NCBI GenBank assembly: GCA_964353785.1
Contig: CAYGWK010000004.1
Coordinates: forward strand, 22,730 to 86,729
Source of the DNA: an uncultured Gammaproteobacteria bacterium
GTDB lineage: Bacteria > Patescibacteriota > Microgenomatia > CAYGWK01
DNA length: 64,000 nt
Reading direction: 5' to 3'
Shown: piece by piece, positions 9,102-59,998 of the stretch
Numbering within the stretch: the first letter of the stretch is position 1
How the letters are laid out: every line of letters begins with the position of its first letter
The notes under the pieces: generated by a model
Database searches by the model: none
Told to the model about the DNA's origin: nothing
Seen by the model: only the letters and a program-made list of their open reading frames with translations
Program-made: the position numbers and the translations under genes

Positions 9102-9209
9102 GCTTGTATTATAGCAGGCAAAGCCTTTATGGTATAAGCGAAGCTTGAAAACTTGTTTGAAAGCTGATGCTTTCAAAAGCCTTTGCCTTTTAGGCAAAGG
9201 AAGTTTATA

Positions 9210-18684: not shown

Positions 18685-18758
18685 GGGCACGTAGCTCAGC
18701 TGGTTAGAGCGCGATTCTTATAAAATCGAGGTCCCTGGTTCGAGACCAGGCGTGCCCA
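18685..18758 (+). tRNA. tRNA-Ile with anticodon UAU (TAT)
   Basis: Manual cloverleaf: acceptor GGGCACG/CGTGCCC, D-arm TAGCTCAGCTGGTTAGAGC, anticodon stem CGATT/AATCG with loop CTTATAA, T-arm CCTGG-TTCGAGA-CCAGG; CCA not encoded. Confidence 0.8.
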
Positions 18759-18759
18759 C

Positions 18760-19632: not shown

Positions 19633-19672
19633 AAACGGCGCTATAATATCACTTGAGAGGATATCTGTCAAG

Positions 19673-20026
19673 ATGAGAAACAAACTAATTACTGGGATAC
19701 TCTTTCTTTTTGGTCTCTACCTCATAGTTTCTTTCTCTCGGGATATTTTGGATCTATATCAAAAAAGTAAAGAAATTGAAAAAGAACAGTTTAAACTTGA
19801 AGAACTTCAGGTTAAAAATGAAGAATTAAAAAAGCAACTTGAATATGTCAAAAGTCAGGAATTTTTGGAGAAAGAGGCGCGAGAAAAATTAGGGTTGGCT
19901 AAGGAAGGAGAGGCAGTCGTCATTCTGCCGGAAAATGTTGAGGAGTTAATCAGTGGTAATCAGCCTCAAATCAGCGCTAATCAGGAAGTTCCTAACTGGA
20001 AAAAGTGGCTCAAGCTTTTCTTTTGA
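19673..20026 (+). CDS. FtsB/DivIC-like septum formation initiator
   Basis: N-terminal TM, coiled-coil, AREKLGL motif typical of FtsB/DivIC. Confidence 0.65.
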   Translation: MRNKLITGILFLFGLYLIVSFSRDILDLYQKSKEIEKEQFKLEELQVKNEELKKQLEYVKSQEFLEKEAREKLGLAKEGEAVVILPENVEELISGNQPQISANQEVPNWKKWLKLFF

Positions 20027-20054
20027 AGCAGAATTTGGTATAATTCTTCTGTCA

Positions 20055-20127
20055 CGCGGGGTAGTGTAAAGTTGCACGGAAGGCTCATAATCTTCCAGCC
20101 TGGGCGCGATTCCCAGCCCCGCAACCA
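20055..20127 (+). tRNA. tRNA-like sequence with CAT anticodon and noncanonical T-loop (possible degenerate/unusual tRNA)
   Basis: Cloverleaf foldable by hand: acceptor CGCGGGG/CCCCGCA with C1:A72 mismatch, anticodon loop CTCATAA, T-loop CGCGATT lacks T54-T55-C56; encoded CCA; abuts the next tRNA with zero spacer. Confidence 0.35.
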
Positions 20128-20199
20128 GGCAGCGTAGCTCAGTGGTAGAGCGGTATCTTCATAAGATAATGGTCACAGGTTCAAATCCTGTCGCTGCCA
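20128..20199 (+). tRNA. tRNA with CAT anticodon (elongator Met or lysidine-type Ile2)
   Basis: Acceptor GGCAGCG/CGCTGCC, D-arm TAGCTCAGTGGTAGAGC, anticodon loop TTCATAA, T-arm ACAGG-TTCAAAT-CCTGT. Confidence 0.8.
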
Positions 20200-20202
20200 C
20201 TA

Positions 20203-45588: not shown

Positions 45589-45861
45589 ATGGCTCATACC
45601 ATCGTCCATCACCTTTTTATTGCTTTTAGGGCGATTGTGCGGGGTTTGGTGCTTTTAGCAGTCTGGATTGCGGTTTCCTTAACTGGACTCTTTTTCTGGA
45701 GCCAATTTTCCTCACCAATAAATCTTATAATCGGCGGACCTTTGTTTTTAATTGGGGTGATGATGGGTTTGTCTACCTTATACGAGACAACTGTCGGGAT
45801 TATCTCCTGGCGGTGGGGGAAAACCCATTGTCCTTTTTGCCAGAATAAGGCTTCTTCTTGA
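45589..45861 (+). CDS. small membrane protein, hypothetical
   Basis: 90 aa, two TM helices, C-terminal CPFC. Confidence 0.4.
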   Translation: MAHTIVHHLFIAFRAIVRGLVLLAVWIAVSLTGLFFWSQFSSPINLIIGGPLFLIGVMMGLSTLYETTVGIISWRWGKTHCPFCQNKASS

Positions 45862-46415
45862 CATTTGCTCGGTTCTAGTGTAAATTGCCTCTAACTTCTG
45901 CCTTTTTTACCCGCCAAGAATTGCTCTTCGAGCCGCGCTACGAACAGTAGGTAAGGCGAGAAGCAAGATTCGGCGGGCCTGCTCCAAAATTCTCCTGTCC
46001 AGAAAGGCTTTTTTATGCTTTACTGGGGTCTTTTTACCTTTGGCTACTGCCTTGGAGCGATTTTTGCCACCGCTATATTTTCAAGAAACACGGAATAACA
46101 CGGAAATCGAACGTGTTTGGATAAATAAGTTATTCACTAAAATCGCTAGTTTTGTTTTTAACTGCCGGTTATTCCTCAGAGACATAGAATTACATGGAAA
46201 ATATCGAGGCTATAGTTTTAGTGGTAAGGCTAGTTTCCCTGATTGACTATCTGATAATAGAATACTATATTAAACAAATTTTCAGCGATAATATAAACCT
46301 ATAAAAAAATTTCTTCCTCATTTTAGTCTCAAAAATAGCATTTTTTGACGGTTTTTAATTTTTGGCTTTACGCTTGATAGTCAAAATTCTCCAAAATTGT
46401 CCTAACTCATAGCCA

Positions 46416-46449
46416 CTTGACAAGAGTACCCATGAAAGGTAACAATATT
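46416..46449 (+). promoter_or_regulatory. conserved promoter/operator-like motif upstream of HTH-GT2 gene A
   Basis: CTTGACAAG-N-TACCCA-N-GTAACAAT shared with 56459-56492 and 50990-51015. Confidence 0.45.
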
Positions 46450-46457
46450 AGTAGGTA

Positions 46458-49400
46458 ATGACTGCCCAAGAAAAATTAAAAATTCTTCATAAAGTTTTAA
46501 AAGAAGGTTCTTCGGTTTCTTCTGTGTGTCGCCAAAACAAAATTTCCCGAAAAACTTTTTATTTTTGGAAGAAAAAATATTTATCCGCTGGGCCGAGGAA
46601 TAAGACATCTTGTTTGGAGAAACGCCATTTAAGAGGCCTACAGCATCCCAGAGGCTTAAAGCTTCGCTTTAAAAAAGACATTTTGAGGCTAGCAACACTT
46701 CACCCAGAACTTGGGAGCCACTCTCTTAGCAAAATCTTAAAAGAAAAAGACAAATTTTTGTCAAATCACGGGGTCTATACCTTATTAAAAGAGTTAGGTC
46801 TTGAAACTAGAGAGAAAAGAAAAGAATTTGCAGGTTATTATCGTAGTCCGTTAAGGCTTTTACCAGAGACGAGGAAGCGATTGGTGGAGGAGGTTGTCCT
46901 GGTTGGCAGAGGAATAAGTGAGGCAGCCAGAGAATATAAAGTTAGCCGGAAAACGCTTTGGAAATGGGCAAAAAGGTATAAAAAAGCCCAGGAAGCGCAG
47001 ATTGAGCTTGTATTGGCTCTCAAGGACCAAAATCCAACTGGCTCGGCTCATCCTCGAGGAACACCGGAATGGCTGGAAAGGAAGATTTTGGAGCATGTGG
47101 TTCGAAATCCAGAATATTCAACTCATAAATTAGCCCAAATTATTCCTCAAATCGGCAATCATGGGATACAGAATGTTTTATTTCGAAATAGTTTGAACAC
47201 TTTTGATAGGAGACTGGAATATGCTCGAATTCATGCTCCTGTTTCCCTAGTGCAACCAATCACTGGCTGGTTGGATCGCTTGCGAAGCGTCTGGCAGACT
47301 TTTGTTCCGACTATCGCTCCCGCTCCTCCCCCCAAGCTAATCAAACCTTTTTTGCTCTCCCTAGGGTCTTCTTCAGCTTTAGCTCTTCTTTTTCTTCTCT
47401 GGCTTCAGATGTTTTCTGGACAATCACTTTCTAGTAAATTAGGTCTATTTTCTGCTTCAATTTCTTTATTTGTTGGCTCTCTCTTTTTCTTATATTCAAT
47501 GAAATATTACTTTACTTTGGCAATAGTGCTCTCCTTTTCAAGTCAAACAGGACCCTTCGACTCCGCTCAGGGTAAAGAATCAGGAGAACAGGGAATGAAA
47601 GGCTGGTTAGCCAGAATATTTGGGAGAAATGGAGAGTGGAGAATGGAGAATGGAGAAAAACTTATTGCTGGAGGACTTCAACCAAACCTGGAACATATAA
47701 AGCTCAAGCGTTATCCTTTTATCTCTGTCCACCTACCTTTTTATAATGAGAAGAAAGTGGCCGAGCGGATTTTATCTGCCTGTACTTCTTTTGATTACGA
47801 GAACTATGAAGTAGTGGTCATTGATGATTCAACTGATGAGACGACGACCATTGTTCAGCGGTTTGCTGATCAATGGAATAAACAAATAAATACCAATAAA
47901 CCAATGATTAGAGTCATTCACCGTCCAACTCGGCAAGGATTTAAGGGTGGAGCCCTTCGGGAAGCCTTAAAACACACTAATCCCAAAGCCGAATTTATCG
48001 TTGTCTTTGATGCTGATTTTATACCGTACCCGGATACGCTGGAATTATTTATTAAGTATTTCAAAGTAAATAACAATGGTTCAGAAGACTACATTAAAAA
48101 CAATGTTGCCGCTGTTGCCGGATACCAGTGGCATGTTTTGAATAAATCAGAGAATTGGATAACCAGGGGAGTGAGAACAGAATATTCAGGCAGTTATGTC
48201 ATTGAAAGACCTGGACAGGAGATTTTAGGGGCAATGAAACTTATTCATGGTTCAGTTTACGCCATAAGAAGCGATCTTTTAAAAAAGATTGGTTGGGGAA
48301 CTTCAATTACCGAAGATTTTGAATTAACCCTTCGACTATACGCTCAGGGCTACAAAGTCATTTACACTCCTTATATTCAAGGACCGGCAGAGTGCGTCTC
48401 AACTATCAAGCGTTTAATCCGCCAAAGAATGCGTTGGAGCGAAGGACACTCACATTGTGTAAAGAAGATGTTTTTAAGGCTCCTTAGCACTCCTCGCATG
48501 AATTTGCCAGAAAAACTGGAATTCTTATACATCTCTCCCTACTATCTTCAGGCTTTTTTCTTTTTAGTGGGAACTTTTTCCTGGCTTTTAGCGGAAACTG
48601 TTTTTCGCGCCCGACTGCCTTTCTGGACCTCTTTATGGGGCTGGAGTTTGGTTTTAACCAATTTCTTTGCCCTACCTTTAATGAATGCCGTTGGTTTATT
48701 TTTGGAGGAAGCCGAGGAGAAAGACTATTTAGGTCTTTTGTCTTTTGTTGCCCTTTCCTATATTTTAGTTCCTTTTCAAGCCTATGCTTCAGTTAAAGGC
48801 TTTTTGGAAAAACAAGAAGGACCTTGGTTTCGGACTCCAAAAACAGGCTTAATTACTGATATCTTCACCCGAGGAAAGTTTTATCGCTGGATTTCGGGGA
48901 TTATTCCCGGGCGCATAGCGCCCGCGATGAGCACAGATATCAGTGCTAATCCCTATCTCGCTTTGGCGACGGCCAATAATCAGTTTAATCAATTTAAAAT
49001 CAGGCGCCGGCATTTAAAATGGGTGGGAAATTTAAGCGTGGTTGGAGTTAGCTTGATGAGTATTATTTTACTGATGATGGCCCCTCTTATTCCCCTTGCT
49101 TCTGCTCCAGCCTCGGCTCAAACAGGCGGTTTTAGAAGTCTTAAAAATGCTGTTCCTTCTTCCCAGGTAAAATTGGCGAAGGAGGTAATCGAAAGCCCGG
49201 TCAATGTCAGTTATGAACTGGGTGAGGGCAGTTTGGAATATATTTTTCATCCTGAACCAAGGGTGAGAGTCAAACTAGGCAATAAAGAAATAGAAACCAG
49301 GGTGGCTAAATCTGACGGCGGGGGCAATCCGCTTCCAGAAAAGGCTTACAAGGAGGGAATCATTTATACTTATCGGGAAATTTTTGAAGGTGTTGATCTC

Positions 49401-50954
49401 CGTTATATAGCTGATATCGAAAAGCTAAAAGAGGAATTTATTCTTAATGAAGATAGAGAATTTGAATCAGTTGAGATGGAAGTTAGATTAACCGGTTTGG
49501 TTTTAGCCCAGGTTGGAGAAGAGATTCAAGTTGCTCCAGCAGAAGGAGGCGAGTCTTTGTTTTATTTCCAAAAACCCTATCTTTATGAAGAGAAAAATCC
49601 GGAAAATAAAAGCCAGGGAATTAAATACGAGATGGAAAAAAGTCAATTTGGCTGGAGGATAAAGAAGGTTTTAACTGATGAGGGAAAAAACTGGCTATCA
49701 GATCCTGCCCGAGATTTTCCGGTGGTTCTTGACCCGACTTTGGTTAAATCAAATGTAGAAGCTTCAGGGATGACAGATGTTGAAACAAGATATCCGGGCA
49801 TTAACCGAAAGATTGCCTATGTTTCCGGTACCGTCGATGGAGCCGCTTGGTACGTAGTGCACGCCAACGGTAACCAAATAATTTATAGGCGTTGTTTGGT
49901 AAGCTCCGGCTGTAATGAAGACGGTGACTGGTCGGCCGCTCAGGATATTGACGATGATGCTTCTGCCAACCATGTTGCCCCCACTCTTTATTATAAATCA
50001 GCAGATAGGCTTTGGGTCGGGTGGACAGATAATTCCGGTGCTGATCCTGATGACACTCTCCATCTTCGTTACATTGATACCACGAGCTCCTTTCCGCACA
50101 GTTTGGGAACGCATTGCGAAACGCTTGATTTAGGGACTATTGGCGGAAACTTCAATACGATTTTTGCTGTTGGCGATAACAGCCATGCGGTTATCGGGAC
50201 CCAGTGTCTTGAAGGAACAGGGACGACATCTTATCTTGTTGATATGAATACTTCGGATTGTACTTATGTATCTATTTTGGCCGGCAGCGGAATGGAAAGC
50301 GGAGTGACAGATTTAGCTGCTTCTGCCGTTGCCCTGGGAAACAATATTAGTATTATCTATGAAGACAACGGACCTACGCCCGATGATTTACGCCATAGTG
50401 TTTATGATGTTTCTACGGGCGTGTGGGACAGTATTGATAACGATGTTGACGGCGCGGACAATATCGACGAAGCGGAGGATTTTTCTGTGACAACCGATGG
50501 AACCAGCATTTGGGTTTTGGCGGTTGATGGGACAACGGATACTGATTTTTTCCGCTGCAGCAGCTGTTTGGACACCGCTCCTTCCTGGACGCAGTCTGAT
50601 GAGATTCCTTGGAGCGGGCAATCAAACGTGACTGAAGCTTCCTTGACTTATATTTCAGGAACAAGCAGTCTGGCTGCTTTTGTGATGAAGGATACCACCA
50701 ACGAGCAAGTTTATACAAAGAGTACTCTTATCGGTACAATTTCCTGGGGGACGGAGTATTCGCTCAGTTATACTGCTGGTACCAATGGCAATCTTTCTTC
50801 GGTGATGAGTGTTGCCAGCGAAGATGATATTGGTGTGGTGATTCTTGAAGGAGTAGCCTTGCGTTTTTCTACCATTCCGGAAAATAGTTTGATTTTTCTA
50901 ATTCTTGCCCCATTTTTGCCTGGAGTAATTAGGAAATTGAGAAGGTATAATTAA
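46458..50954 (+). CDS. giant fusion protein: duplicated transposase-like HTH N-terminus + processive GT2 (cellulose-synthase-like) + large extracellular C-terminal domain
   Basis: Two N-terminal HTH modules (ISRKTFYFWKKKY; VSRKTLWKWAKRY) each followed by a GNHGIQNVL-type segment; GT2 motifs HLPFYNE..., DADF (DxD), TED (TEDFELTLR), QRMRW (QxxRW); ~600-aa S/T/D/G-rich ectodomain; C-terminal IPEN-TM-RKLRR tail. Confidence 0.75.
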   Translation: MTAQEKLKILHKVLKEGSSVSSVCRQNKISRKTFYFWKKKYLSAGPRNKTSCLEKRHLRGLQHPRGLKLRFKKDILRLATLHPELGSHSLSKILKEKDKFLSNHGVYTLLKELGLETREKRKEFAGYYRSPLRLLPETRKRLVEEVVLVGRGISEAAREYKVSRKTLWKWAKRYKKAQEAQIELVLALKDQNPTGSAHPRGTPEWLERKILEHVVRNPEYSTHKLAQIIPQIGNHGIQNVLFRNSLNTFDRRLEYARIHAPVSLVQPITGWLDRLRSVWQTFVPTIAPAPPPKLIKPFLLSLGSSSALALLFLLWLQMFSGQSLSSKLGLFSASISLFVGSLFFLYSMKYYFTLAIVLSFSSQTGPFDSAQGKESGEQGMKGWLARIFGRNGEWRMENGEKLIAGGLQPNLEHIKLKRYPFISVHLPFYNEKKVAERILSACTSFDYENYEVVVIDDSTDETTTIVQRFADQWNKQINTNKPMIRVIHRPTRQGFKGGALREALKHTNPKAEFIVVFDADFIPYPDTLELFIKYFKVNNNGSEDYIKNNVAAVAGYQWHVLNKSENWITRGVRTEYSGSYVIERPGQEILGAMKLIHGSVYAIRSDLLKKIGWGTSITEDFELTLRLYAQGYKVIYTPYIQGPAECVSTIKRLIRQRMRWSEGHSHCVKKMFLRLLSTPRMNLPEKLEFLYISPYYLQAFFFLVGTFSWLLAETVFRARLPFWTSLWGWSLVLTNFFALPLMNAVGLFLEEAEEKDYLGLLSFVALSYILVPFQAYASVKGFLEKQEGPWFRTPKTGLITDIFTRGKFYRWISGIIPGRIAPAMSTDISANPYLALATANNQFNQFKIRRRHLKWVGNLSVVGVSLMSIILLMMAPLIPLASAPASAQTGGFRSLKNAVPSSQVKLAKEVIESPVNVSYELGEGSLEYIFHPEPRVRVKLGNKEIETRVAKSDGGGNPLPEKAYKEGIIYTYREIFEGVDLRYIADIEKLKEEFILNEDREFESVEMEVRLTGLVLAQVGEEIQVAPAEGGESLFYFQKPYLYEEKNPENKSQGIKYEMEKSQFGWRIKKVLTDEGKNWLSDPARDFPVVLDPTLVKSNVEASGMTDVETRYPGINRKIAYVSGTVDGAAWYVVHANGNQIIYRRCLVSSGCNEDGDWSAAQDIDDDASANHVAPTLYYKSADRLWVGWTDNSGADPDDTLHLRYIDTTSSFPHSLGTHCETLDLGTIGGNFNTIFAVGDNSHAVIGTQCLEGTGTTSYLVDMNTSDCTYVSILAGSGMESGVTDLAASAVALGNNISIIYEDNGPTPDDLRHSVYDVSTGVWDSIDNDVDGADNIDEAEDFSVTTDGTSIWVLAVDGTTDTDFFRCSSCLDTAPSWTQSDEIPWSGQSNVTEASLTYISGTSSLAAFVMKDTTNEQVYTKSTLIGTISWGTEYSLSYTAGTNGNLSSVMSVASEDDIGVVILEGVALRFSTIPENSLIFLILAPFLPGVIRKLRRYN

Positions 50955-50989
50955 GATATGTTTCCACGCGGCAAGATTTTTTGCCCCCC

Positions 50990-51053
50990 CTTGTTACCCA
51001 ATAGGTGTTTACATTAAATTTTGAGGCAGATAGTATCCATTAAGTCTTAACAA
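50990..51053 (+). promoter_or_regulatory. conserved upstream motifs (CTTG-TACCCA-GTTTACATT plus AGTATCCATTAAGTCTTAACAA) before the 51079 gene
   Basis: Second motif is near-identical (21/22) to 56518-56539. Confidence 0.45.
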
Positions 51054-51078
51054 ATGAAGAAATGGTATAATAAGTTGT

Positions 51079-52701
51079 ATGTTTGGCTACCCAACCCAAA
51101 TTTCTCTTATTCCTACCACTGTCGCTCTGGTTAGATTTATCGAGGAACACGGTTTTGTCTCCTGGTATCCTTATTGGTATCTAGGAAACCCATTACATTA
51201 TCTTACTGGTCCAATTTTGCCAGTAATTTGCCTAGTGTTGCATAGGATATTTCCAGCCCTTAATTTCTTTGATATTGTCTACATTTTAATTTTTTTCTCT
51301 TTCATTTTAGGTCCTTTAGGTCTTTTTTTCTTCGTCCGCAAACTTTCCGGCAACTTTTTCTTGTCTCTTGTCTCTTTTCTCTTCTTTCTTTTTCTGCCTT
51401 GGCACTATTTTTCTGGCCTGGTTTTAGATAATGGCAGTCATATTTTAGCCCTAATGGTTCTCCCTTGGGTCCTTTGGTTAAGTCTTTTTGCTTTGGAAAA
51501 GTGGCATAAAGCCTGGGTTATCCTCGCCACGCTCGCGATGGCTTTTGTTATATTAATAGATAGTTTGATAGGGGTTCCTCTGGTGGTGGGACTAGTTCTT
51601 TTTGTATCACTTAAGATACTGAAATCAACTGAAGGCATTGAGATAAAGATTGCTAAAGCACTTTTTTTATTAGTCTTAGGTTGGCTTTTGACCTTCTGGT
51701 GGTTTAGTCCGGGGTACTGGCTGACAATTCTTCAGGCTCCATCCTTAGCCGGGAAGGGGCTTTTAAGTGTTGTAGTTTGGTTAGGAAGACTGCTTTTAAA
51801 CCTAGTTCCCCTGGTTCTGGCGGTTTTTTCCGTTTCTCGATTCAAAAAAATTAAAGATAGAACCTTAATTTTTACTTTAGGTTGGCTTGGGTTTTTTGGT
51901 TTTCTGACTTTGATGAGATTTCTGTCTGACCCGGATTTCTGGCAGGACTGGTCAAGTTACGGAGTAGAGTTGGAGTTAGGGATAGCGATGGCGCTGGGGT
52001 TAATTTTGAACAGATGGAAGTTTTCAGTGTTTCAGAAAATATTCAGCGTTTCTGTGATTCTGGGCTTGGCGGCAGTTTGGGGCTATGCCTTTAGGTGGAC
52101 GCCACTTCTGATTCCCAGGAAAAATATAGAAAACACCGTTGAGTACCGGATTGGCAAACAGCTATCCGAGATTGCTAAGCCCCTTTCGGCAAGCTCAGGG
52201 CAAGCTGGCGAACGAGTTTTTCTTTCAGGCTCAACTGCTTTTTGGTTAAATGCCTTTTTTGACATTCCCCAGGTTCGGGGTGGGAAAGATGAGACTTCGG
52301 TTGAGCCTTTATGGAGACAAGCGGCTTGGGAAATACGAGAGGGCCCTTCGACAAGCTCAGGGCAGGAAAACACGGAAAAATGGCTGAAAACACTGAATGT
52401 TTCTTATTTAGTGGTTCACACCCAAGATTCTGAAGAATATTACCATGATTTTTCCCACCCGGAAAAATTTGAGTCTGCCAAATCGCTTAAAAAGGTTTTT
52501 TCGGATAAAGGGGATGTTGTTTATCGGGTTGAAGGAGTGGTTCCGTCGCTAAAAGAAGAAGAATATAAAGACTGGACAAAACCAATTGGTTGGGGGATAA
52601 GTCTTTTAGCGGTTCTAGTTCTTTTTCTTTTTCCAAAATCTTGGGAATTATTGTCCGCCAAAATGCCTAAATTGGATTTGGGTGGAGAAGAGAATTATTA
52701 A
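51079..52701 (+). CDS. polytopic membrane protein, possible GT-C-type glycosyltransferase
   Basis: ~12 TM helices in the N-terminal 350 aa, soluble C-terminal domain, final TM. Confidence 0.45.
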   Translation: MFGYPTQISLIPTTVALVRFIEEHGFVSWYPYWYLGNPLHYLTGPILPVICLVLHRIFPALNFFDIVYILIFFSFILGPLGLFFFVRKLSGNFFLSLVSFLFFLFLPWHYFSGLVLDNGSHILALMVLPWVLWLSLFALEKWHKAWVILATLAMAFVILIDSLIGVPLVVGLVLFVSLKILKSTEGIEIKIAKALFLLVLGWLLTFWWFSPGYWLTILQAPSLAGKGLLSVVVWLGRLLLNLVPLVLAVFSVSRFKKIKDRTLIFTLGWLGFFGFLTLMRFLSDPDFWQDWSSYGVELELGIAMALGLILNRWKFSVFQKIFSVSVILGLAAVWGYAFRWTPLLIPRKNIENTVEYRIGKQLSEIAKPLSASSGQAGERVFLSGSTAFWLNAFFDIPQVRGGKDETSVEPLWRQAAWEIREGPSTSSGQENTEKWLKTLNVSYLVVHTQDSEEYYHDFSHPEKFESAKSLKKVFSDKGDVVYRVEGVVPSLKEEEYKDWTKPIGWGISLLAVLVLFLFPKSWELLSAKMPKLDLGGEENY

Positions 52702-52831
52702 AAAACCACCAAGGGAGAAATTTTTCGCCCTCTTAAATCCAGGACTATCCTGGAACGGGCACCATAATTGTGGTATAATCCAATTCCGAATTTTGGCTCT
52801 TTGAAATTTTAACCCTTAAAGGAGGCTTAAG

Positions 52832-53677
52832 GTGTTTAAGAAACAAGAGTTAGTTCCACTCAAATACGGAGGCTCGCGGATAAAACTGGCAGTTGAGGTT
52901 GCTCTCTTTGCCGTTTCGGCAATTATTTACACAGCGCTCATGGGAATCCTGGGAGCGATGGCACTCTTAGCGTTCATCTTGATCCATGAAGGCGGTCATG
53001 TTTGGGCCATGGAAAAAGTAGGAGTTCGACTTAAAGGGATTTATTTCCTTCCCCTTCTAGGAGCAGCCGTAATTCCAGAAGGAAACTTTCGTTCCTATAA
53101 AGCCGAATTCTATACCGCCATCATGGGTCCAACAATGGATTTGACATTCGCCTTGATTGCCCTAGTCAGCTACTGGTATACCAGGAGCGTTGTCTTCCCA
53201 ACAATTGCCGCTATGTTTGCCTTCATGGACCTTCTTAACCTTTTGCCAGTTTTACCTCTAGATGGAGGGTTGATGTTCAAGTCAATTACTTTTTCCCTTT
53301 CGCCTAAAATCAAACTCCTCCTCATCGCCCTTGGATTTCTGGCTGTCTTGCTGGTGGTCACCGCGATATTTGTTCTACCCAGCGCTTTCATTCTTCTTCT
53401 CGCCACTGTTACGGGTAGAATCCCTGACTCATGCTTCTCAATTGGTCTAGCCCTATTTGCTGCTTTCCTAATTGGTTGGGCTCTTTTGCAAAGTAAAGCG
53501 CTGGCTCAAGAAGAGAAGATGGTCAAAGAAAGAATGACAAAAGTGGAAACCGCGGTTCATTCGCTTTTGTATACGATGTTAGCGGGAACTCTGCTTTTAG
53601 TCATCACCGCCAGTTTAGTGCTAATCATAGCCAATCCAGAAGGGCTACTAGATTTTGCGAGCCTCCGAATTCCCTAA
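52832..53677 (+). CDS. site-2 protease family (peptidase M50) membrane metalloprotease
   Basis: HExxH (ILIHEGGHVWAM) in a TM helix and LPVLPLDGG (LDG) motif. Confidence 0.75.
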   Translation: MFKKQELVPLKYGGSRIKLAVEVALFAVSAIIYTALMGILGAMALLAFILIHEGGHVWAMEKVGVRLKGIYFLPLLGAAVIPEGNFRSYKAEFYTAIMGPTMDLTFALIALVSYWYTRSVVFPTIAAMFAFMDLLNLLPVLPLDGGLMFKSITFSLSPKIKLLLIALGFLAVLLVVTAIFVLPSAFILLLATVTGRIPDSCFSIGLALFAAFLIGWALLQSKALAQEEKMVKERMTKVETAVHSLLYTMLAGTLLLVITASLVLIIANPEGLLDFASLRIP

Positions 53678-53824
53678 GTGGCCACCTGAGTGGTTTCTAA
53701 ATTTCCAAACCACAAAATGGTGGCCTCTTTCTTTTTTTACCAAATTCAGGAAGTTTATTTGGGAGCAAATAAGTGTTGTGCGGGGGAGCGGAGATTCAAC
53801 ACCCGGTGTTGGTTTCTTGATTTC

Positions 53825-53971
53825 TCATTCCATTTCTTCAATTTTGCTTTCTAACTCATCTACCCTATCTTTTAAGTCTTGAATTGTTCTGTTATTTTCC
53901 AACGGACAGAGATTACTTCCTGCATTAGCGCAGGTTGTACACATTGACCAATCAAAATTGCAATTTGCCAT
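53825..53971 (-). CDS. small Cys-rich peptide (48 aa), hypothetical
   Basis: MANCNFDWSMCTTCANAGSNLCPLENN... with GGTGAG RBS 5 nt upstream; four Cys in the N-terminal half, coiled-coil-like acidic C-terminus; below the ORF-track size cutoff. Confidence 0.3.
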   Translation of the reverse strand: MANCNFDWSMCTTCANAGSNLCPLENNRTIQDLKDRVDELESKIEEME

Positions 53972-54009
53972 TTTTACTCACCGCTTTTTCAAGAGCACAA
54001 AAAAACTCT

Positions 54010-54789
54010 CTATATTTTTTCCACCAAAACATCTTTTATTAAGGCCCTTTCGGTTCCCGAATTTCTGAAACCAACAGTGCCATACTCAAGATTGATAGGG
54101 AAAGGGATCTTGACCACGCGTCCTTCCGGTTCTTCCTTAAATTCAAACATGACTGCTCCATGGGGAATTAACCATTCTCGATTAAAGACACAGTTTTTAT
54201 CTTCATAAAGCTTTATTCCTATAGAATTTTTTTCGCAAGATAGAATAACCCTATACCATTTATCTAAGGCTAATTTTTTAGCAAATTTCAAATTTGTCTC
54301 TTCCGCCTCCCAAGCTCTCCAACCTCCGTTAATTCTTATATGGGGACGGATTCCATTTTCTCCAACTTGTAGCATCACATAGTTAGAAAGATTTATCGCT
54401 CTTGCTACTACACCCAAGCAAGAATTTACGATTTTAAATTCTAAGCTCAGATTATAGTCACTCCAGCTTAGACACTTTGAATAAATGAATCCTGGTTCGG
54501 AATCTGTAATGACAAAACACTTTTGGGGCCTAAGGTACTCAAATTTGCCCTTCCCAAGCCAATCATCCCTATCCTCTCTTTTGGTCAATGGAATAAAATA
54601 GAAGTCCTTGTCTCTAACTCGGAGAAGAATAACCACAAAGAGAGAGGTGGCAGTAATCATTACAGATAAAAAGAGAAGGGTTCTTGGGTCCGCAGCATAC
54701 CTGAAAGCCAAAAAGTATGAAATAAGTGCGGAGATAGCAGTCAAAAGGTCGAATTTATAATTTTTTGTAAAATAAAGTATTCTTTTCAT
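54010..54789 (-). CDS. membrane-anchored protein with C-terminal beta-sandwich (DUF1080/LamG-like) domain
   Basis: Two N-terminal TM helices; C-terminal SLEFKIVNS...NGG...W.RV.L.C..N.I.I.L...NCVF pattern recalled for DUF1080/concanavalin-like folds. Confidence 0.4.
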   Translation of the reverse strand: MKRILYFTKNYKFDLLTAISALISYFLAFRYAADPRTLLFLSVMITATSLFVVILLRVRDKDFYFIPLTKREDRDDWLGKGKFEYLRPQKCFVITDSEPGFIYSKCLSWSDYNLSLEFKIVNSCLGVVARAINLSNYVMLQVGENGIRPHIRINGGWRAWEAEETNLKFAKKLALDKWYRVILSCEKNSIGIKLYEDKNCVFNREWLIPHGAVMFEFKEEPEGRVVKIPFPINLEYGTVGFRNSGTERALIKDVLVEKI

Positions 54790-55346
54790 TTTTTCTCAAT
54801 TTTATGCCTTGATTTCAAGAACTCAGCGGTAAGCGTGGCCACAATCTCATGGGGTTTTTCATCTGCTTTATCTGAACGTAACTGTTCATTGTCTAAATCA
54901 ATAAAATTCTGCGACTTAACATTTCTACTTTTATCACCTATGTAAACGACTGCTATTTTACGCCCATCATTTGTATAACCAAGTTTTGCTTCTACCCAAT
55001 GCTGTTCATCTTCACTTCTATCTTTAATTGGTTGTATTGGGCTATCGAGAGAAATGGTTTTTAATTTATTATCTAATTTCGCTTGGTATGCGATGTGAGC
55101 AAGTCGCCTCAATTCAATTACGTTTCTCTCTAGCTCATGCCTTCTCTTACATATGGGACAAATCCCAAGTTTATAGTTCTCTTCTCTGAACTCTAGAACG
55201 GCTCCACATTCCAAACACATCGGCCCAGTGATTTCGTAAATTTCTTTAACATTTATATCATTCTCACTCACTCTAAAAACAGGTTTCCAAAAAGCGTTGC
55301 GAAACCTAAACCTCTCCTCTTCTAATGGATAGAACCCTTTCTTCAT
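54786..55346 (-). CDS. zinc-ribbon protein, hypothetical
   Basis: CLECG...CPICKRRH zinc ribbon; 4-bp overlap with the downstream gene. Confidence 0.45.
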   Translation of the reverse strand: MKKGFYPLEEERFRFRNAFWKPVFRVSENDINVKEIYEITGPMCLECGAVLEFREENYKLGICPICKRRHELERNVIELRRLAHIAYQAKLDNKLKTISLDSPIQPIKDRSEDEQHWVEAKLGYTNDGRKIAVVYIGDKSRNVKSQNFIDLDNEQLRSDKADEKPHEIVATLTAEFLKSRHKIEKK

Positions 55347-55464
55347 AATACAAAGTAATTTAACTCAATTTTTCTCAACTTCCAGCCAAAGTTTTGCAAC
55401 CCTGGTTAATTGTCAGACTAGCACACGGAGTGCTAAAAATCAATAGCTGGCTTTTTTTGGTTTT

Positions 55465-55473
55465 AGTGATATA
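55465..55473 (+). promoter_or_regulatory. extended -10 promoter element (TGATATAAT)
   Basis: TGnTATAAT 10 nt upstream of the 55483 ATG. Confidence 0.4.
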
Positions 55474-55482
55474 ATTTTTGGC

Positions 55483-56001
55483 ATGAATGAAAGATTATCA
55501 TCTACCGAGTTTTACGATGCGGTTATCGCTATCGTTGGAAAAACTGACGATAGGAAGGGATACATCCAAGAAACACTCATTCCAAAAATGGATGAGCACA
55601 GAGGAAGAGTTCGACCGCAGACTAGAGAGGAGATTGTTAAAAAGTTATTTTCTGCTGACATGACTAAACCAGGGGAGGCAGTAGAGATTATTGAAGAGGC
55701 AGTTAGGGCTAAAAGAAAGTTAACTCCAGAACTTGCTTTAGAGGTGGCGGATGTAATCTATTATACGCTCCAGCCAAACTGTCCAGATTTTGCAAATAAC
55801 CCGGAGCCATTTATAACAGGTTTAGGGATCGATATGGAGACTGCCTACACCCTCTGTATAGTAAAATATGAAGCCAGACTTCTTTGTGATAGTCTTTCAA
55901 ATTTTAAAGAAATAGAAAAGGAAATAATGACTAGATTTTTAGAAAAAGGAAGAGGATTATTGACCGGCTCGCAAGAGAAGAAAGGCAAGAAAGATCATTA
56001 A
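55483..56001 (+). CDS. hypothetical protein
   Basis: 172-aa ORF. Confidence 0.45.
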   Translation: MNERLSSTEFYDAVIAIVGKTDDRKGYIQETLIPKMDEHRGRVRPQTREEIVKKLFSADMTKPGEAVEIIEEAVRAKRKLTPELALEVADVIYYTLQPNCPDFANNPEPFITGLGIDMETAYTLCIVKYEARLLCDSLSNFKEIEKEIMTRFLEKGRGLLTGSQEKKGKKDH

Positions 56002-56295
56002 GATGATATAGACAGTGAGAAGAGCAGTAGTAAACAGGGGAAGCTGACTTTGTTTTTGGGTAGGTGGCGGTGCGCCTGATTCCGGTTTTGCCTCAGAGAT
56101 CTTTTCCTCTATCTCGGGCTTTTTAGCGAAGATATAGTTTAATTCTTCCTTTTTATAATATCTTCGGTTGGTTGGTGAGCGGTGGGCTTTGATGATACCC
56201 CTTTTTTCCCAGCGCCTTAAGGTATCTTTTGAGATTCTTAAAAGTTTGGCAGCTTCACCGATTGAAAGCCAGTCTTGTTGAGTAAGTTCATTCAT
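55957..56295 (-). CDS. excisionase/MerR-type HTH protein with C-terminal TM helix
   Basis: LSIGEAAKLLRISKDTLRRWEKRGII HTH of the excisionase/MerR family, Pro-rich linker, C-terminal hydrophobic helix. Confidence 0.6.
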   Translation of the reverse strand: MNELTQQDWLSIGEAAKLLRISKDTLRRWEKRGIIKAHRSPTNRRYYKKEELNYIFAKKPEIEEKISEAKPESGAPPPTQKQSQLPLFTTALLTVYIILMIFLAFLLLRAGQ

Positions 56296-56458
56296 TTTTG
56301 ATATAGTTCCTCAGGTAATTCTTATTATTACTAAGTATTGCCTAGTATGGTGAGTTTAGACCAATTTGCCAGGTGATACGATATTATACTGTTATTTTTC
56401 CCTTGTCAACTGGAAAAATTTTGTCTCCAAAACCTTAAATTAATCATTATAAATGGCT

Positions 56459-56539
56459 CTTGACAAGCGATACCCACTTGATGTTAACATTTACTCGGGA
56501 GGCTGTTTTTACCCCTTAGTATCCATTAAATCTTAACAA
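56459..56539 (+). promoter_or_regulatory. conserved promoter/operator-like motifs upstream of HTH-GT2 gene B
   Basis: CTTGACAAGCGATACCCACTTGATGTTAACATT and AGTATCCATTAAATCTTAACAA, ending 6 nt before the ATG. Confidence 0.45.
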
Positions 56540-56545
56540 CTGCCA

Positions 56546-59500
56546 ATGTCGCCTAAATACACTGCTCAAGAAAGATTAAAGCTAATTGAAAGAGTAATCC
56601 TTGGTGGCGAGAAGGCAGCAGAAGTCTGTCGCAAAGCAGGAATCTCTCGAGTTTTGTTCTATAGTTGGCTTAAGAAATACCGTGAGGCTGGTCAACAAAT
56701 AGAGGCTTTAGTTCCTGGAAAGAAGAAAATCTCAATTTCTCCAAGAAAAGTCACTCCCCAGAAAGAAAAACAAATCCTCGCCATAGTTAAAGAGCATCCC
56801 CAGTGGTCAACTAAAAAAATAAGCGCCGCTTTGCCCAAAGAACCCTCGGGAAAGCCAATTGTCGGCAATCATGGGGTCCAGAATGTCCTTCAAAGACTTA
56901 ATCTTTCAACCCGAGAGGAAAGAACTGCTTATATAAAGGCAGTTAGCAGACCAAAAGAGGAAGTGCTAACTGGAGTTCAGCTTACGCCTGAACAGAAACT
57001 AGAGATGCTTGAAAAGGTAGTCATTGGTAAAGAAAAGGTAAGCAAAGTTTGTCAGGAATATGGGATTTCCAGAACCCTTTTCTACAGACTTAAAAGACGT
57101 TATGAAGAGGCGGCTTTGGAAGAAAAACTGCGGGCGGTTGCCCCAGCGGTTCGCCATATAGAAAGGTATTGGCGGCAAACTCCGGAGAGGTATGAAAGAG
57201 CAGTTTTGGATCTGGTGGGAAAGCACCCAGAATATTCAGTTCGTAAACTGGTTGCCCATTTGCCAGAAGTGGCTGGCGTTCCCATTGTTGGTCATCATGG
57301 AGTCCAAAATATCCTGCACCGATATAATCTTTCTTTATATGAGCAAAGACAAGCTTTCGCTTCGGCCCAAGTGACGCCAATTACCCGGTTTGTTGGCGCT
57401 TTCGAACAAGCCTTTGCTAGACTTTTTGTCTTTCCAGTTGAGACAAGAGCGGCCGTGGTCAGATTTTTGGGGATTGCTGCCGCAAGCACTTTTGCTACTG
57501 TTGTGGTTTTAGGTAGTTTGGGATATTTTGCTACAGTTTTCAAGGGAGTTGCTCCAATTTACCGACCCGGATTAGCCTTTGCCTCAATCGCTCTTTCAGT
57601 TGGTTCTATTTTTTTCCTCTATTCAATGAAGTACTACTTTACTTTGGCCATAGTTTTGTCTTTCTCCCGCCAGCCAGGAGAACCAGCAGTTTTGGGACTA
57701 AATGGAGAATTTAAGAAAAATGGCAACGGGGGATGGCTTTCAAGGATTTTTGGCCTCCGGCCCAACGGGCCGATAGGCCCGGAGGGTTTGGGCAAAGGCA
57801 AAGAACGGCGAGTGGTTGGGCTTGAGCCAAATCTTGAATCAGTTAAACTTGAAAAACATCCTTTTGTCTCTGTTCACCTACCTTTTTATAATGAGAAAAA
57901 AGTGGCGGAGCGAATTTTATCTGCCTGTACCTCTTTTGACTATCCAAACTATGAGGTAATTGTGGTTGATGATTCCACTGATGAAACAGTTGAGATTTTA
58001 AAAGGTTGGCAGAATCATCCAAAAGTCAAAATTGTCCACCGCCAAACTCGAGAGGGATTTAAAGGAGGAGCCCTTCGGGAAGCCCTAAAACACACGGATC
58101 CCAAAGCCGAGTTTGTCGTTGTCTTTGATGCTGACTTTATTCCTTATCCTGATACTTTGGAATTATTTTTGAAATACTTTAAAACCTACAATCAGGATTC
58201 AGAGGATTTCTCTAAATCAAATATTGCCTGCGTTCAAGGATATCAATGGCATGTTTTAAACAAGTCTGAAAATTGGATTACTCGGGGAATAAGAAGCGAA
58301 TATGCTGGCTCGTATGTTATTGAGCGTTCTGGCACTGAAGTCTTAGGAGCGCTAAAACAAATTGCCGGTTCAGTCTACATGGTTCGGGCAGACCTCCTTA
58401 AGAAATTTGGTTGGGGGACTTCAATTACCGAAGATTTTGAGCTAACCTTGAGGCTTTATGAACAAGGCTACAAAGTGGTTTACACTCCCTATGTTCAAGG
58501 TCCGGCAGAGTGCGTCTCTACCATCAAGCGTTTAATTCGCCAAAGAATGAGATGGGCAGAAGGACATAGCCATAATGTTCGGAAAATGTTTTTAAGGCTT
58601 CTTGGGTCGCCTAGGATGACTTTAACCGAGAAAATGGAGTTCCTCTACCTTTCTCCCTATTATCTTCAGGCTTTCTTTTTCTTGGTGGGCACTTTTTCCT
58701 GGCTTATGGCGGAGACTGTCTTTAGGGCTCGCCTTCCTTTCTGGACTTCTCTTTGGGGCTGGTCGCTTGTTTTAACTAACTTTTTCTCTTTGCCTTTAAT
58801 GAATGCGGTTGGTTTGTTTTTGGAAGAAGGGGAAAATAAAGATTATTTAGGAATCTTATCTTTTATTGCTTTATCTTACCTTCTGGTTCCCTTCCAAGCC
58901 TATGCTTCAGTAAAAGGGTTTTTAGAGAGAGAAGAAGGACCTTGGTTTAGGACGCCTAAAACTGGTCTTATTACCGACATCTTTACCCGAGGAAAATTCT
59001 ATCGCTGGATTTCGGGGATTATTCCTGGAAGACGGCCAGCGGTTGTCCCTGCCCCTGGAGGAGTTTTGGGGAACAAACCAGCCTGGGCAACCAATCCTTA
59101 TCTCGCTTTGGCGACGGCGAATAATCGGTTTGAGGATTTTCAGATTAAAAGAAAAAGACTGCCTTGGGTGGCTAGGGCGGCCTTGGCGATCCTCTTAATT
59201 TTTACCACCACCTTTTTTCAACTGTCCCAGAATATAAAAGTGGTCCAGGCCACCGGGATGGTAAGTCCTTTAAAACTTTCTCAAGGGCAAGTCGGTGATG
59301 GGACATGGCCTGCCTGGGGGAATTATATGACGAATAACAGTAATGGCTATGGCACGGGAACCTTATTTAGGTTTAATAGAAGGAACGCTAATTCCAGTGG
59401 TAATAATTATACCTGGTATACCAATCTTTTACCAGTATCCGATGGGGGGGATGCGGCGAGTGTTCCCGCTGGCCAGTATTTTGTCCAGCTAGCCAAATCC

Positions 59501-59998
59501 GGCTATAGCGCCGCCGGCAACTACATTAATTTTGGTTTACAGCTTCTTTTAACCAATAATAATGGGACTACCAGGACACAGATTTTATGGGGCATCCAAC
59601 AAATAAACACCAGTGATCTCAATAATACTATCTTTCAATATTATGTTGGTAATAAATCAGCGGCCAATACGATCACCTACGCGGCTAGGAACCGGTTTGC
59701 TTTGAGGGTTCTCTATATCAATGCCAACACCACCTCAGCCACGGTTAATTGGTTAATTAACAATAGTACTGTTCCCGCCAGGCTCTTTTTGCCCGGAAAC
59801 TTAATCATCCCGGAGATTCCTCTACCAATGGTCATGGCAATGATGCTGGCGATCATGCCGGTGCTGCCGACACTCGTTTCCGGTCGGTTGCGGAAACCAG
59901 GGCAAAACATTTTTGAGGAATTCTTCTTAGCTTGGAAAGATTTGATGAGGCAATTAACAGGGAAAGGGGAGGAGGCGTTGGACGAATTGCCGGTATAG
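56546..59998 (+). CDS. giant fusion protein paralog: duplicated transposase-like HTH N-terminus + processive GT2 + Asn-rich extracellular C-terminal domain
   Basis: HTH modules (AGISRVLFYSWLKKY; YGISRTLFYRLKRRY) plus GNHGVQNVL/GHHGVQNIL segments; GT2 motifs HLPFYNE, DADF, TEDFELTLR, QRMRW nearly identical to 46458 gene; C-terminal IPEIP-TM-RLRK tail. Confidence 0.75.
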   Translation: MSPKYTAQERLKLIERVILGGEKAAEVCRKAGISRVLFYSWLKKYREAGQQIEALVPGKKKISISPRKVTPQKEKQILAIVKEHPQWSTKKISAALPKEPSGKPIVGNHGVQNVLQRLNLSTREERTAYIKAVSRPKEEVLTGVQLTPEQKLEMLEKVVIGKEKVSKVCQEYGISRTLFYRLKRRYEEAALEEKLRAVAPAVRHIERYWRQTPERYERAVLDLVGKHPEYSVRKLVAHLPEVAGVPIVGHHGVQNILHRYNLSLYEQRQAFASAQVTPITRFVGAFEQAFARLFVFPVETRAAVVRFLGIAAASTFATVVVLGSLGYFATVFKGVAPIYRPGLAFASIALSVGSIFFLYSMKYYFTLAIVLSFSRQPGEPAVLGLNGEFKKNGNGGWLSRIFGLRPNGPIGPEGLGKGKERRVVGLEPNLESVKLEKHPFVSVHLPFYNEKKVAERILSACTSFDYPNYEVIVVDDSTDETVEILKGWQNHPKVKIVHRQTREGFKGGALREALKHTDPKAEFVVVFDADFIPYPDTLELFLKYFKTYNQDSEDFSKSNIACVQGYQWHVLNKSENWITRGIRSEYAGSYVIERSGTEVLGALKQIAGSVYMVRADLLKKFGWGTSITEDFELTLRLYEQGYKVVYTPYVQGPAECVSTIKRLIRQRMRWAEGHSHNVRKMFLRLLGSPRMTLTEKMEFLYLSPYYLQAFFFLVGTFSWLMAETVFRARLPFWTSLWGWSLVLTNFFSLPLMNAVGLFLEEGENKDYLGILSFIALSYLLVPFQAYASVKGFLEREEGPWFRTPKTGLITDIFTRGKFYRWISGIIPGRRPAVVPAPGGVLGNKPAWATNPYLALATANNRFEDFQIKRKRLPWVARAALAILLIFTTTFFQLSQNIKVVQATGMVSPLKLSQGQVGDGTWPAWGNYMTNNSNGYGTGTLFRFNRRNANSSGNNYTWYTNLLPVSDGGDAASVPAGQYFVQLAKSGYSAAGNYINFGLQLLLTNNNGTTRTQILWGIQQINTSDLNNTIFQYYVGNKSAANTITYAARNRFALRVLYINANTTSATVNWLINNSTVPARLFLPGNLIIPEIPLPMVMAMMLAIMPVLPTLVSGRLRKPGQNIFEEFFLAWKDLMRQLTGKGEEALDELPV

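Follow-up and report, generated by a model that had tools for sequence, protein, structure and literature searches.

In the PEP-CTERM/EpsH systems, whose enzyme is XrtA, the exosortase cargo consists of a signal peptide, a Thr/Ser/Asn-rich body with little detectable homology and a sorting tail, which is built of a Pro-Glu motif on the outer face, a transmembrane (TM) helix and a basic cluster; the enzyme is polytopic and is defined by a Cys/Arg/His triad, and the systems are linked to exopolysaccharide (PMC1569441). The XrtG/Firmicu-CTERM system of the Firmicutes, which are single-membrane bacteria, is a small cassette in which exosortase G, an exosortase-family enzyme, stands together with its tailed cargo, a membrane glycosyltransferase of family 2 (GT2) and a second glycosyltransferase (PMC12854382). 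The present study concerns two paralogous genes, A and B, in a stretch of 64,000 nucleotides of contig CAYGWK010000004.1 (the whole stretch is called the window hereafter), each of which encodes a GT2 synthase core with two tandem helix-turn-helix (HTH) modules of transposase type in front of it and an ectodomain ending in a sorting-signal-like tail behind it. The closest known system is the XrtG/Firmicu-CTERM cassette, and more generally the locus is like PEP-CTERM/EpsH; membership in either is not established. We lean, with reservation, towards the reading that A and B are self-regulating synthases and exosortase-cargo polyproteins at the same time. The architecture as a whole is undescribed, yet it is built of known kinds of parts, namely a processive GT2 synthase and exosortase sorting. 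New in comparison with the XrtG and PEP-CTERM systems are the fusion of the cargo with the synthase in cis, the tandem DNA-binding region of transposase origin on that synthase and the matching operator in its own promoter; we know of no described processive glycan synthase which has sequence-specific DNA-binding modules together with such an operator.

Gene A (46458..50954, + strand) encodes a protein of 1498 amino acids and gene B (56546..59998, + strand) one of 1150 amino acids (P0041 and P0001, respectively, among the database proteins). Both giant open reading frames (ORFs) were found exactly where the initial annotation had placed them, without interruption. They were scanned against Pfam and NCBIfam, and for B a full-length AlphaFold2 (AF2) model was built with 42 family members as input (mean predicted local distance difference test, pLDDT, 71.8). 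Protein A is composed, in this order, of the two HTH modules, two TM helices, the GT2 synthase, a signal-peptide-like TM helix, a Ser/Thr/Asp/Gly-rich ectodomain with DUF7948 and a tail with a Pro-Glu (PE) motif. Protein B has the same layout, but its ectodomain is an Asn-rich beta-sandwich and its cytoplasmic C-terminal extension is longer. According to hydropathy and the AF2 model, the chain of B runs through the two HTH modules, two long TM helices, a disordered linker, the GT-A domain, the interface helix with QRMRW, a helix cluster, the WFRTPKTG loop, a disordered linker of ~70 residues which holds a conserved ALATANNRFNxFxI motif, one TM helix, the beta-sandwich, the final TM helix and a basic cytoplasmic end. 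The two proteins are 54% identical across ~930 residues, i.e. the HTH region and the GT2 core, and their ectodomains gave no alignment to each other (BLASTP).

At its N-terminus each protein has an HTH region which derives from a transposase and lacks the catalytic domain. Its two tandem bipartite modules, of the IS481/IS630/IS3 N-terminal type, occupy residues 1-125 and 133-268 in A (46458..47261, +) and residues 4-135 and 144-278 in B (56555..57379, +; Pfam, NCBIfam and AF2). Scanning of residues 1-270 against Pfam gave HTH_Tnp_1/HTH_28/HTH_23 together with HTH_32 in two stretches of both proteins (for A, HTH_Tnp_1 at 1e-14 and HTH_28 at 8e-12, two stretches each), and the NCBIfam model transpos_IS481 was matched twice per protein (E-values 6e-27 and 1e-28; 5.8e-27 for A), at profile positions 2-114 of 284 only and with 95-100 bits against a cutoff of 224. 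No rve/DDE catalytic family appeared in the Pfam and NCBIfam scans of A and B. Two transposase-like modules lacking a DDE domain had been read from the letters alone in the initial annotation, and Pfam, NCBIfam and Foldseek all bear this out.

In the AF2 models the HTH subdomains of B reach pLDDT values of 85-94 (85-92 for the modules in the full-length model, 85 for a separate model of the N-terminal 292 residues), and each module is predicted to begin with a three-helix HTH, to which a linker joins another HTH bearing a small hairpin. The best fold matches of the region in the PDB by Foldseek were the paired domains of Pax6, Pax5 and Prd, SETMAR on a transposon end, TnsB and Tc3, all of them two-HTH domains solved on DNA (probabilities 0.8-1.0, E-values 0.085-0.8); these matches support the sequence-based assignment, short of proof. 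Throughout the family the ISR..Y.W..Y and HGVQN.L.R positions are kept in both modules, the conserved recognition-helix positions are retained, and the HTH region has a median net charge of +29 (~+23 in B), as against +6 in the GT2 domain. The arrangement of an HTH followed by a second HTH or winged HTH in each module is shared with the N-termini of IS481, IS630 and Tc1-mariner transposases and with their domesticated relatives (Pax, SETMAR, CENP-B); sequence homology links the modules of A and B to the IS481/IS630/IS3 N-termini, and their predicted fold is like that in the DNA complexes of Pax6, SETMAR and Tc3. They differ from the transposases, Pax and SETMAR by having no DDE/rve domain, by the tandem duplication and by the tether to a membrane enzyme, and their presumed target would be a promoter element and not a transposon end.

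The extent of the family was established by a search with B against a collection of 5.8 billion proteins, which returned 268 matches. Among the best 120, which were inspected, nearly all carry the HTH and the GT2 Pfam sets, with a length of 850-2000 amino acids and 40-75% identity to B. More than 100 protein clusters from independent assemblies share the HTH-GT2 architecture; the source names, where given, are Patescibacteria, Microgenomates, Woesebacteria, Chisholmbacteria and Nomurabacteria, and the label of the JGI pipeline is 'cellulose synthase/PNAG synthase-like glycosyltransferase/transposase'. When one genome per GTDB species was considered, 269 places were seen to encode a relative, mostly in Microgenomates-type Patescibacteria; the search of related genomes of the candidate phyla radiation (CPR), which had been advised initially, thus found the same fusion in hundreds of genomes. 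For the gene neighbourhoods 75 loci were fetched, mainly from Woese-, Davies-, Gottesman-, Chisholm- and Curtissbacteria and often with several copies per genome, and their ORFs were called and clustered by all-against-all BLASTP. They contain 85 family ORFs, with two HTH modules in 49, one in 27 and none in 9 of them.

A few features of these loci are recorded here in their own right. Some members are very large, such as those at 9839-20803 of L037 (3654 amino acids), 4385-13258 of L074 (2957) and 904-9504 of L028 (2866), in genomes of ~1 Mb, and several genomes have 3-5 paralogs of the fusion gene. Many loci (L001, L004, L008, L011, L013 and others) are titled 'uncultured Gammaproteobacteria' or 'Candidatus Bathyarchaeia', and are probably mislabelled or mis-binned.

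The homology of the N-terminus to those of IS481, IS3 and IS630 transposases could raise the suspicion that the architecture is an artefact, in which a fragment of an insertion sequence (IS) or transposase gene came to lie in frame with a GT2 gene, either through faulty assembly or because it had recently inserted into this genome. The probability of such an origin is negligible: it is refuted by the more than 100 clusters, with 40-75% identity and from independent assemblies, by the 269 genomic places and by the divergent paralogs, which are 54% identical throughout and still share one layout; there is also no DDE domain, and a conserved promoter lies directly upstream of the start codon of the HTH region. 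Relatives in 269 places and in independent assemblies exclude both a false join in the assembly and a recently inserted IS, and we hold the HTH-GT2 fusion to be real with near certainty; this answers the check for a frameshift or join which the initial annotation had advised. A literature search, in a body of literature which omits much subscription content, yielded no paper on an HTH-GT2 fusion or on an exosortase/archaeosortase in the CPR; within that body the claim that the architecture had not been described was upheld. It should be emphasized that this is a large, automatically annotated and lineage-specific family of Microgenomates-type CPR bacteria, apparently undescribed and not peculiar to one genome.

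The middle part of both proteins is, with high probability, a processive synthase of the BcsA/hyaluronan synthase (HAS) type. In A the GT2 catalytic domain, the interface helices, the TM cluster and a gating-loop-like WFRTPKTG are found at residues 410-797 (47685..48848, +), and in B the catalytic domain, the TM cluster and WFRTPKTG at residues 428-807 (57827..58966, +). The Pfam GT2 families PF00535, PF13641 and PF13632 match both proteins at about residues 420-745 (E-values 1e-18 to 1e-24). The motifs of A are DDSTDE (456-461), FDADF (517-521), ITEDFE (617-622) and QRMRW (656-660), with their counterparts in B at 475-480, 527-531, 627-632 and 666-670, and the D, DxD, TED, QRMRW and WFRTPK columns are invariant in an alignment of 42 members. 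Two TM helices precede the catalytic domain, and a helix cluster and then the invariant WFRTPK follow it, so the full processive motif set flanked by TM helices that had been noted from the sequence is confirmed. The GT-A domain of B was modelled with a pLDDT of ~90, and the fold of the core matches BcsA (8.6e-16), Chlorella virus HAS (CvHAS) and Xenopus HAS (XlHAS1) in Foldseek.

The likeness to BcsA, PgaC, class I HAS and chitin synthase/NodC extends to the GT-A fold, to the D, DxD, TED and Q(R/Q)xRW motifs, the last on an interface helix, and to the two TM helices before the catalytic domain, the several after it and the gating-loop-like WFRTPK. The proteins differ from synthases of the BcsA/HAS type in having no PilZ or other known regulatory domain and in adding four HTH subdomains at the N-terminus and, at the C-terminus, an exported domain whose length ranges from 180 residues to more than 2000. 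The top enzyme model in NCBIfam was PgaC/IcaA (~1e-28), with 100-101 bits for A and B against a cutoff of 422, the CelA model scored 61-63 bits against 699, and neither protein reached the NCBIfam cutoff of a polymer-defining equivalog (PgaC, CelA, NodC). Because the scores are far below these cutoffs, no polymer is assigned to A and B. The models of the XrtG- and XrtP-associated GT2 enzymes were also matched weakly (26-29 bits against 364 and 52-56 against 520).

Behind the core the ectodomains of the family cannot be aligned, and yet their last 30-70 residues can. In front of the ectodomain stands a helix which resembles a Sec signal peptide, in an internal position and with a V-x-A site. 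In A the segment lies at residues 845-887 (48990..49118, +) and consists of KIRRRHLKW, an h-region and ASAPASA/QT, with the putative site after 887; in B it lies at residues 866-902 (59141..59251, +) and consists of IKRKRLPW, an h-region and VVQA/TG, with the putative site after 902. In the family pattern the n-region is basic (KPKRLRW) and the h-region spans ~18 residues; Pro stands at -5/-6, Val or Ala at -3 and Ala at -1, and at least 75 of 88 members have [AVLISTG]-x-A behind the h-region. Such a helix suggests a polyprotein, and for the release of the ectodomain by signal peptidase, to judge from this pattern, we see about even chances.

The ectodomain of A (residues 888-1472; 49119..50873, +) has no alignment with that of B and includes DUF7948 at residues 971-1070 (Pfam); it contains 9.4% Ser, 7.9% Thr, 8.0% Asp and 8.7% Gly. 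That of B (residues 903-1087; 59252..59806, +), a predicted beta-sandwich in the AF2 model, contains 14.7% Asn and 10 NxS/T sequons in 184 residues. These compositions agree with the two distinct long ectodomains, one Ser/Thr/Asp/Gly-rich and the other Asn-rich with sequons, which had been described at first sight. The tail of A (50874..50951, +; IPENSLIFLILAPFLPGVIRKLRRYN) consists of IPEN, a hydrophobic helix with APFLP and RKLRR, and that of B (59807..59995, +), which begins IPEIPLPMVMAMMLAIMPVLPTLVSGRLRK, of IPEI, a helix and GRLRK, followed by a conserved cytoplasmic extension of ~40 residues ending in LDELPV. The extension, at 59870-59995 (about residues 1109-1150 of B), is also present in the homologs P0005-P0028 and follows the pattern GRxRKxGQNIFxE..AWK.L..KL.G...LDxLPV. 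Among the tails Pro-Glu is invariant (42-member alignment), Ile or Val stands at -1 in 61 of 65, P-F-I-P occurs at +11..+14 in ~40-47 of 65, and a Lys/Arg cluster follows the helix; this conservation is far beyond chance. A tail profile run over the loci gave signal almost exclusively on the A/B family, the apparent exceptions being fragments of family members. Taken together, the signal peptide, the Thr/Ser/Asn-rich body and the tail would amount to an exosortase-cargo layout appended to a synthase.

The commonest neighbour of the family genes is a polytopic protein of ~190 residues, which occurs in 44 of the 75 loci, on the same strand and mostly directly downstream of the fusion gene. It passes the exosortase/archaeosortase signature TIGR04178 (28.3 and 31.8 bits, cutoff 23) and has an invariant Cys90, Arg134 and His154; in NCBIfam it matches the generic signature only, and not XrtG. 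At least 214 clusters make up this mini-exosortase family, and their only labels are 'exosortase/archaeosortase family protein' and 'hypothetical'. For 43 family genes with an intact 3' end and no less than 1.5 kb of sequence beyond it, the mini-exosortase was found in the locus of 35 and within 300 bp downstream of 20; the automated tail filter used in this tally missed several obvious tails, so its tail counts are underestimates. Because mini-exosortase genes stand beside the relatives, the tail is most likely a new sorting signal, and we regard it as probably an exosortase signal. A different window ORF at 9183-9872, with six TM helices and resemblance to the CPBP/myxosortase core, was considered as a sorting enzyme and rejected (26 bits against a cutoff of 100), as there is no evidence of a link to A or B; some proteins of that class do act as sorting enzymes.

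The comparison with the described systems shows where the locus departs from them. With respect to the XrtG/Firmicu-CTERM cassette, the cargo of A and B is fused in cis to the GT2 enzyme, which also bears DNA-binding modules, their tail has no Firmicu-CTERM match and the exosortase of the relatives has the generic signature only. In contrast to PEP-CTERM, the motif of the A/B family is [IV]PE[NK] and not PEP, the enzyme has only ~190 residues, the signal peptide of the cargo would be internal, after the synthase, the hosts are without an outer membrane, which all PEP-CTERM species possess, and the tail occurs essentially in a single protein family, where PEP-CTERM tails mark dozens of unrelated proteins.

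The regulatory part of the reading is founded on a conserved promoter/operator-like element. Upstream of A a type II copy was located at 46417..46448 (+; TTGACAAGAGTACCCATGAAAGGTAACAAT) and upstream of B a type I copy at 56460..56490 (+), which has TTGACA, a 19-nt spacer with TACCCA and then TGTTAACAT. A second operator-like core is present in the leader of B (56520..56538, +; TATCCATTAAATCTTAACA), and two cores (50995-51013 and 51034-51052, +) precede c1, a gene for a membrane protein downstream of A. In the family, type I elements have the same 19-nt spacer with TACCCA followed by TGTTAACAT as an extended -10, and type II elements read AGTACCCATGAAAGGTAACAAT. Of 75 family genes, 51 have an upstream TTGACA, which is present in 8% of random 250-bp windows of the same loci; one of the two patterns follows it. 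The core TAYCCA-N5-8-TWACA has 5 copies in the window, all on the + strand and all upstream of A (1), c1 (2) and B (2), against a mean of 0.7 in shuffled window sequence; the conserved upstream motifs mentioned in the initial annotation are real.

A strict regular expression gave 41 matches in the 1.13 Mb of the loci and 0-1 in shuffled loci; being too narrow, it missed degenerate copies, and an nhmmer profile was used instead. Out of 61 profile matches at E<=1, 51 lie upstream of fusion or HTH ORFs and 3 upstream of c1-type genes. The motif was detected at 47 of the 69 family genes with a transposase-type HTH and at none of the 6 without one (Fisher p ~0.002). Tandem operator sites recur in B-like and c1-like genes of other loci. 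The upstream regions of A and B differ by an offset and one indel and were misaligned by MAFFT, and a fixed-length pattern search of the window DNA found only the copy of B; the motif was recovered by cross-genome comparison. On the minus strand a promoter-like TTGACA-17-TAATAT was noticed at 56381-56409, ~85 nt upstream of the start of the divergent MerR-type gene described below, which suggests back-to-back divergent promoters.

From these elements the following course can be proposed for the self-regulating polyprotein. The two tandem, strongly basic, paired-domain-like HTH modules would be held in the cytoplasm and would most likely bind the operator in their own promoter, i.e. TTGACA, TACCCA and (T)GTTAACAT, which also precedes the partner gene c1, so that the membrane enzyme would be its own membrane-tethered transcription factor. 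The GT2 synthase-translocase would polymerise sugar on the cytoplasmic face and extrude the chain through its own TM channel. After a flexible linker, the signal-peptide-like helix would export the fast-evolving Ser/Thr/Asn-rich ectodomain, whose tail, [IV]PE[NK] with the helix (APFIP) and KKRR, would be recognised by the dedicated cysteine transpeptidase of ~190 residues from the exosortase/archaeosortase family. This enzyme would cleave the tail and attach the ectodomain to an acceptor on the cell surface; the acceptor could be the protein's own polymer. A form of the regulator-synthase-cargo polyprotein in which the HTH region tethers its own promoter to the enzyme and tunes its transcription, and the ectodomain, freed by signal peptidase, is moved by the mini-exosortase onto the nascent polymer itself, seems to us rather unlikely. 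In the proposed principle, a cytoplasmic DNA-binding domain held at the membrane by a TM segment and regulating without release, the proteins would resemble ToxR, CadC and TcpP; those regulators, however, use an OmpR-type winged HTH and periplasmic sensors, whereas the 'sensor' of A and B would be a whole polysaccharide synthase, and there is no homology.

Several observations count against this proposal, and they touch both the sorting and the regulatory half of it. As to sorting, ten tails matched none of the curated sorting models (PEP-CTERM, PGF-CTERM, Firmicu-CTERM etc.) in NCBIfam at E<=10, TIGR02595 (PEP-CTERM) included; of the resemblance to PEP/PGF-CTERM tails that had been pointed out initially, the tripartite build, the conservation and an exosortase gene in the relatives were borne out, and no curated model was matched. 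The conserved cytoplasmic extension of ~40 residues on the B-type tails is unusual in a sorting signal. No exosortase was found in the 64-kb window with a profile of 46 relatives run against its six-frame translation (best E-value 0.029, in a spurious frame), and four small polytopic ORFs of the window had no NCBIfam match in the exosortase search; the homolog that the initial annotation had advised looking for is thus present in the loci of relatives and absent from the window, and for the genome of A and B the partner is only assumed to lie elsewhere, since the window holds no copy. Furthermore, exactly two helices follow WFRTPK, as in synthases of the BcsA type.

The last point leads to a different explanation, according to which there is no processing at all. 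BcsA-type processive synthases have two further TM helices after interface helix 3 and the gating-loop region; both late helices of A and B would be these two, the ectodomain would be an insertion in an extracellular loop that forms a polymer-handling or host-adhesion cap above the channel, and the exosortase would have another substrate or a non-proteolytic role. The conserved interior of the tail helix (APFIP) could then reflect packing against other helices, and the cytoplasmic extension of the B-type tails and the lack of an exosortase near A or B would be in line with it. On the other hand, the signal-peptide-like and tail helices of B have pLDDT values of only ~50-66, compared with 80-90 for the TM helices of the core, and are separated from the core by the disordered linker of ~70 residues; V-x-A outside the first helix, and the invariant PE outside the second with its basic cluster, are hallmarks of cleavage and sorting; and the Cys/Arg/His exosortase gene stands directly downstream in 20 of the 43 cases, with the tail as the sole sorting-like signal in the neighbourhood. 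On this balance the absence of processing appears improbable to us, though worth serious attention.

As to the regulatory half of the self-regulating polyprotein, the structural E-values of the HTH modules are weak (0.085 or higher, Foldseek), and no PDB entry was matched significantly by the sequence of the HTH region. The motif was not detected by the profile in 22 of the 69 HTH-bearing genes. The six HTH-less genes come from only ~3-4 genomes, and the correlation of HTH and motif is inflated by shared ancestry; for both reasons the p value of ~0.002 is optimistic. A further adverse point is the gene for a MerR-type HTH protein with a TM anchor, which stands upstream and divergent in 26 family loci. 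In the window it is found at 55957..56295 (- strand, upstream of B) and encodes 112 residues with a MerR/HTH_17-type HTH (Pfam MerR, 1.3e-14) and a C-terminal TM anchor; homologs were found in 28 loci, the said 26 of them upstream on the opposite strand. The synthases of L067 and L068 carry, instead of transposase-type modules, a fused MerR-type HTH that is homologous to this protein (BLASTP 3e-9 and 5e-7), which shows a functional link. These two members (L067 6951-9602 and L068 9338-14236) have the MerR/HTH_17 HTH and a TM segment at the N-terminus and long (Gly-Asn)n low-complexity linkers before the GT2 part.

The operator might accordingly be bound by this divergent protein, or by another factor, and the fused HTH region might serve protein-protein contacts, oligomerisation or non-specific tethering to the nucleoid. 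The geometry of the type I promoters, with a conserved element in a 19-nt spacer between -35 and -10, which is typical of MerR-type regulation, speaks for this possibility, as do the divergent position of the gene and its fusion to the synthase in L067/L068. It is opposed by the finding that genes with and without a MerR-TM neighbour show the motif at similar rates (13 of 26 and 19 of 49, respectively), and that L067/L068 and the other HTH-less members are without the motif (0 of 6); moreover, the neighbour consists of the HTH part only, without the MerR dimerisation or effector region (Pfam), whereas the fused modules keep their recognition-helix positions and a net charge of about +29. We therefore give the MerR-type protein or another factor a minor chance, roughly equal to that of an unprocessed ectodomain. 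As for the autoregulation through the upstream motifs suggested in the initial annotation, the specificity of the motif for the promoters of the cassette and its absence where the HTH is missing were substantiated, and these speak for autoregulation in a real but indirect way; that the fused HTH modules themselves bind it is what we infer from these sequences, and we put the case for and against it at about even.

A third way to regulation would be that, as with SREBP or RseA, regulated intramembrane proteolysis releases the HTH region as a soluble factor; a site-2 protease of the M50 family (52832-53677, between A and B; Pfam 1.5e-11) would be at hand for this, and the HTH region is tethered by a TM hairpin. 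The M50 gene was rejected as a dedicated partner, as it does not recur beside the family genes of the 75 loci, and no conserved cleavage motif was seen in the first TM helix; we consider this route very improbable.

Apart from the mini-exosortase and the MerR-type gene, two further partners recur. The c1 gene (51079..52701, +) encodes a polytopic, GT-C-like membrane protein of 540 residues with homologs in 40 of the 75 loci; among its relatives 11 of 30 match, weakly, the Pfam family PF10131 PTPS_related, which belongs to the GT-C glycosyltransferase clan (PMC7801869). The copy in the window had no Pfam or NCBIfam match, and a c1 profile had none in the PDB and NCBIfam. A small membrane protein of 90 residues with a C-terminal CxxC is encoded at 45589..45861 (+), and its homologs stand upstream on the same strand in 13 loci.

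Between this gene and A there is a stretch of ~600 bp without genes (45862-46457), which is long for a CPR genome and has no Rfam match; the promoter/operator accounts for its last 40 bp only. Rfam and tRNA scans gave no match in or near the A/B locus. Elsewhere in the window (18685-20200) a minus-strand ORF of 307 residues (18760-19683) lies between tRNA genes, one for tRNA-Ile(TAT) and two, in tandem, for tRNA-Met(CAT); the site could be a hotspot of integration. Envelope-glycosylation genes abound in the window, which has several large polytopic proteins of the GT-C/PMT type or with C-terminal TPR repeats; the ORF at 61869-63344 has a PMT_2 match (1.6e-12), and TPR repeats are found in the ORFs at 60038-61891 and 34447-36147.

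CPR bacteria (Patescibacteria) live attached to host cells, and they have tiny genomes and few characterised surface proteins. Since the family comprises several paralogs of 1000-3600 residues with fast-evolving ectodomains in such tiny genomes, its members are strong candidates for surface proteins and for host interaction. If the DNA binding is confirmed, it would represent a new coupling of envelope biosynthesis to transcription, and a domestication of a transposase DNA-binding domain in bacteria. The target to which exosortases attach their cargo, and the constant tie of these enzymes to exopolysaccharide loci, have been a standing question since 2006. The fusion of cargo and synthase beside a minimal exosortase of ~190 residues offers a compact three-part system, which could be reconstituted and tested; if the ectodomain is indeed moved onto the nascent polymer, this would be the first direct link, encoded in cis, between an exosortase cargo and an exopolysaccharide synthase, and it would point to what exosortases attach their cargo to.

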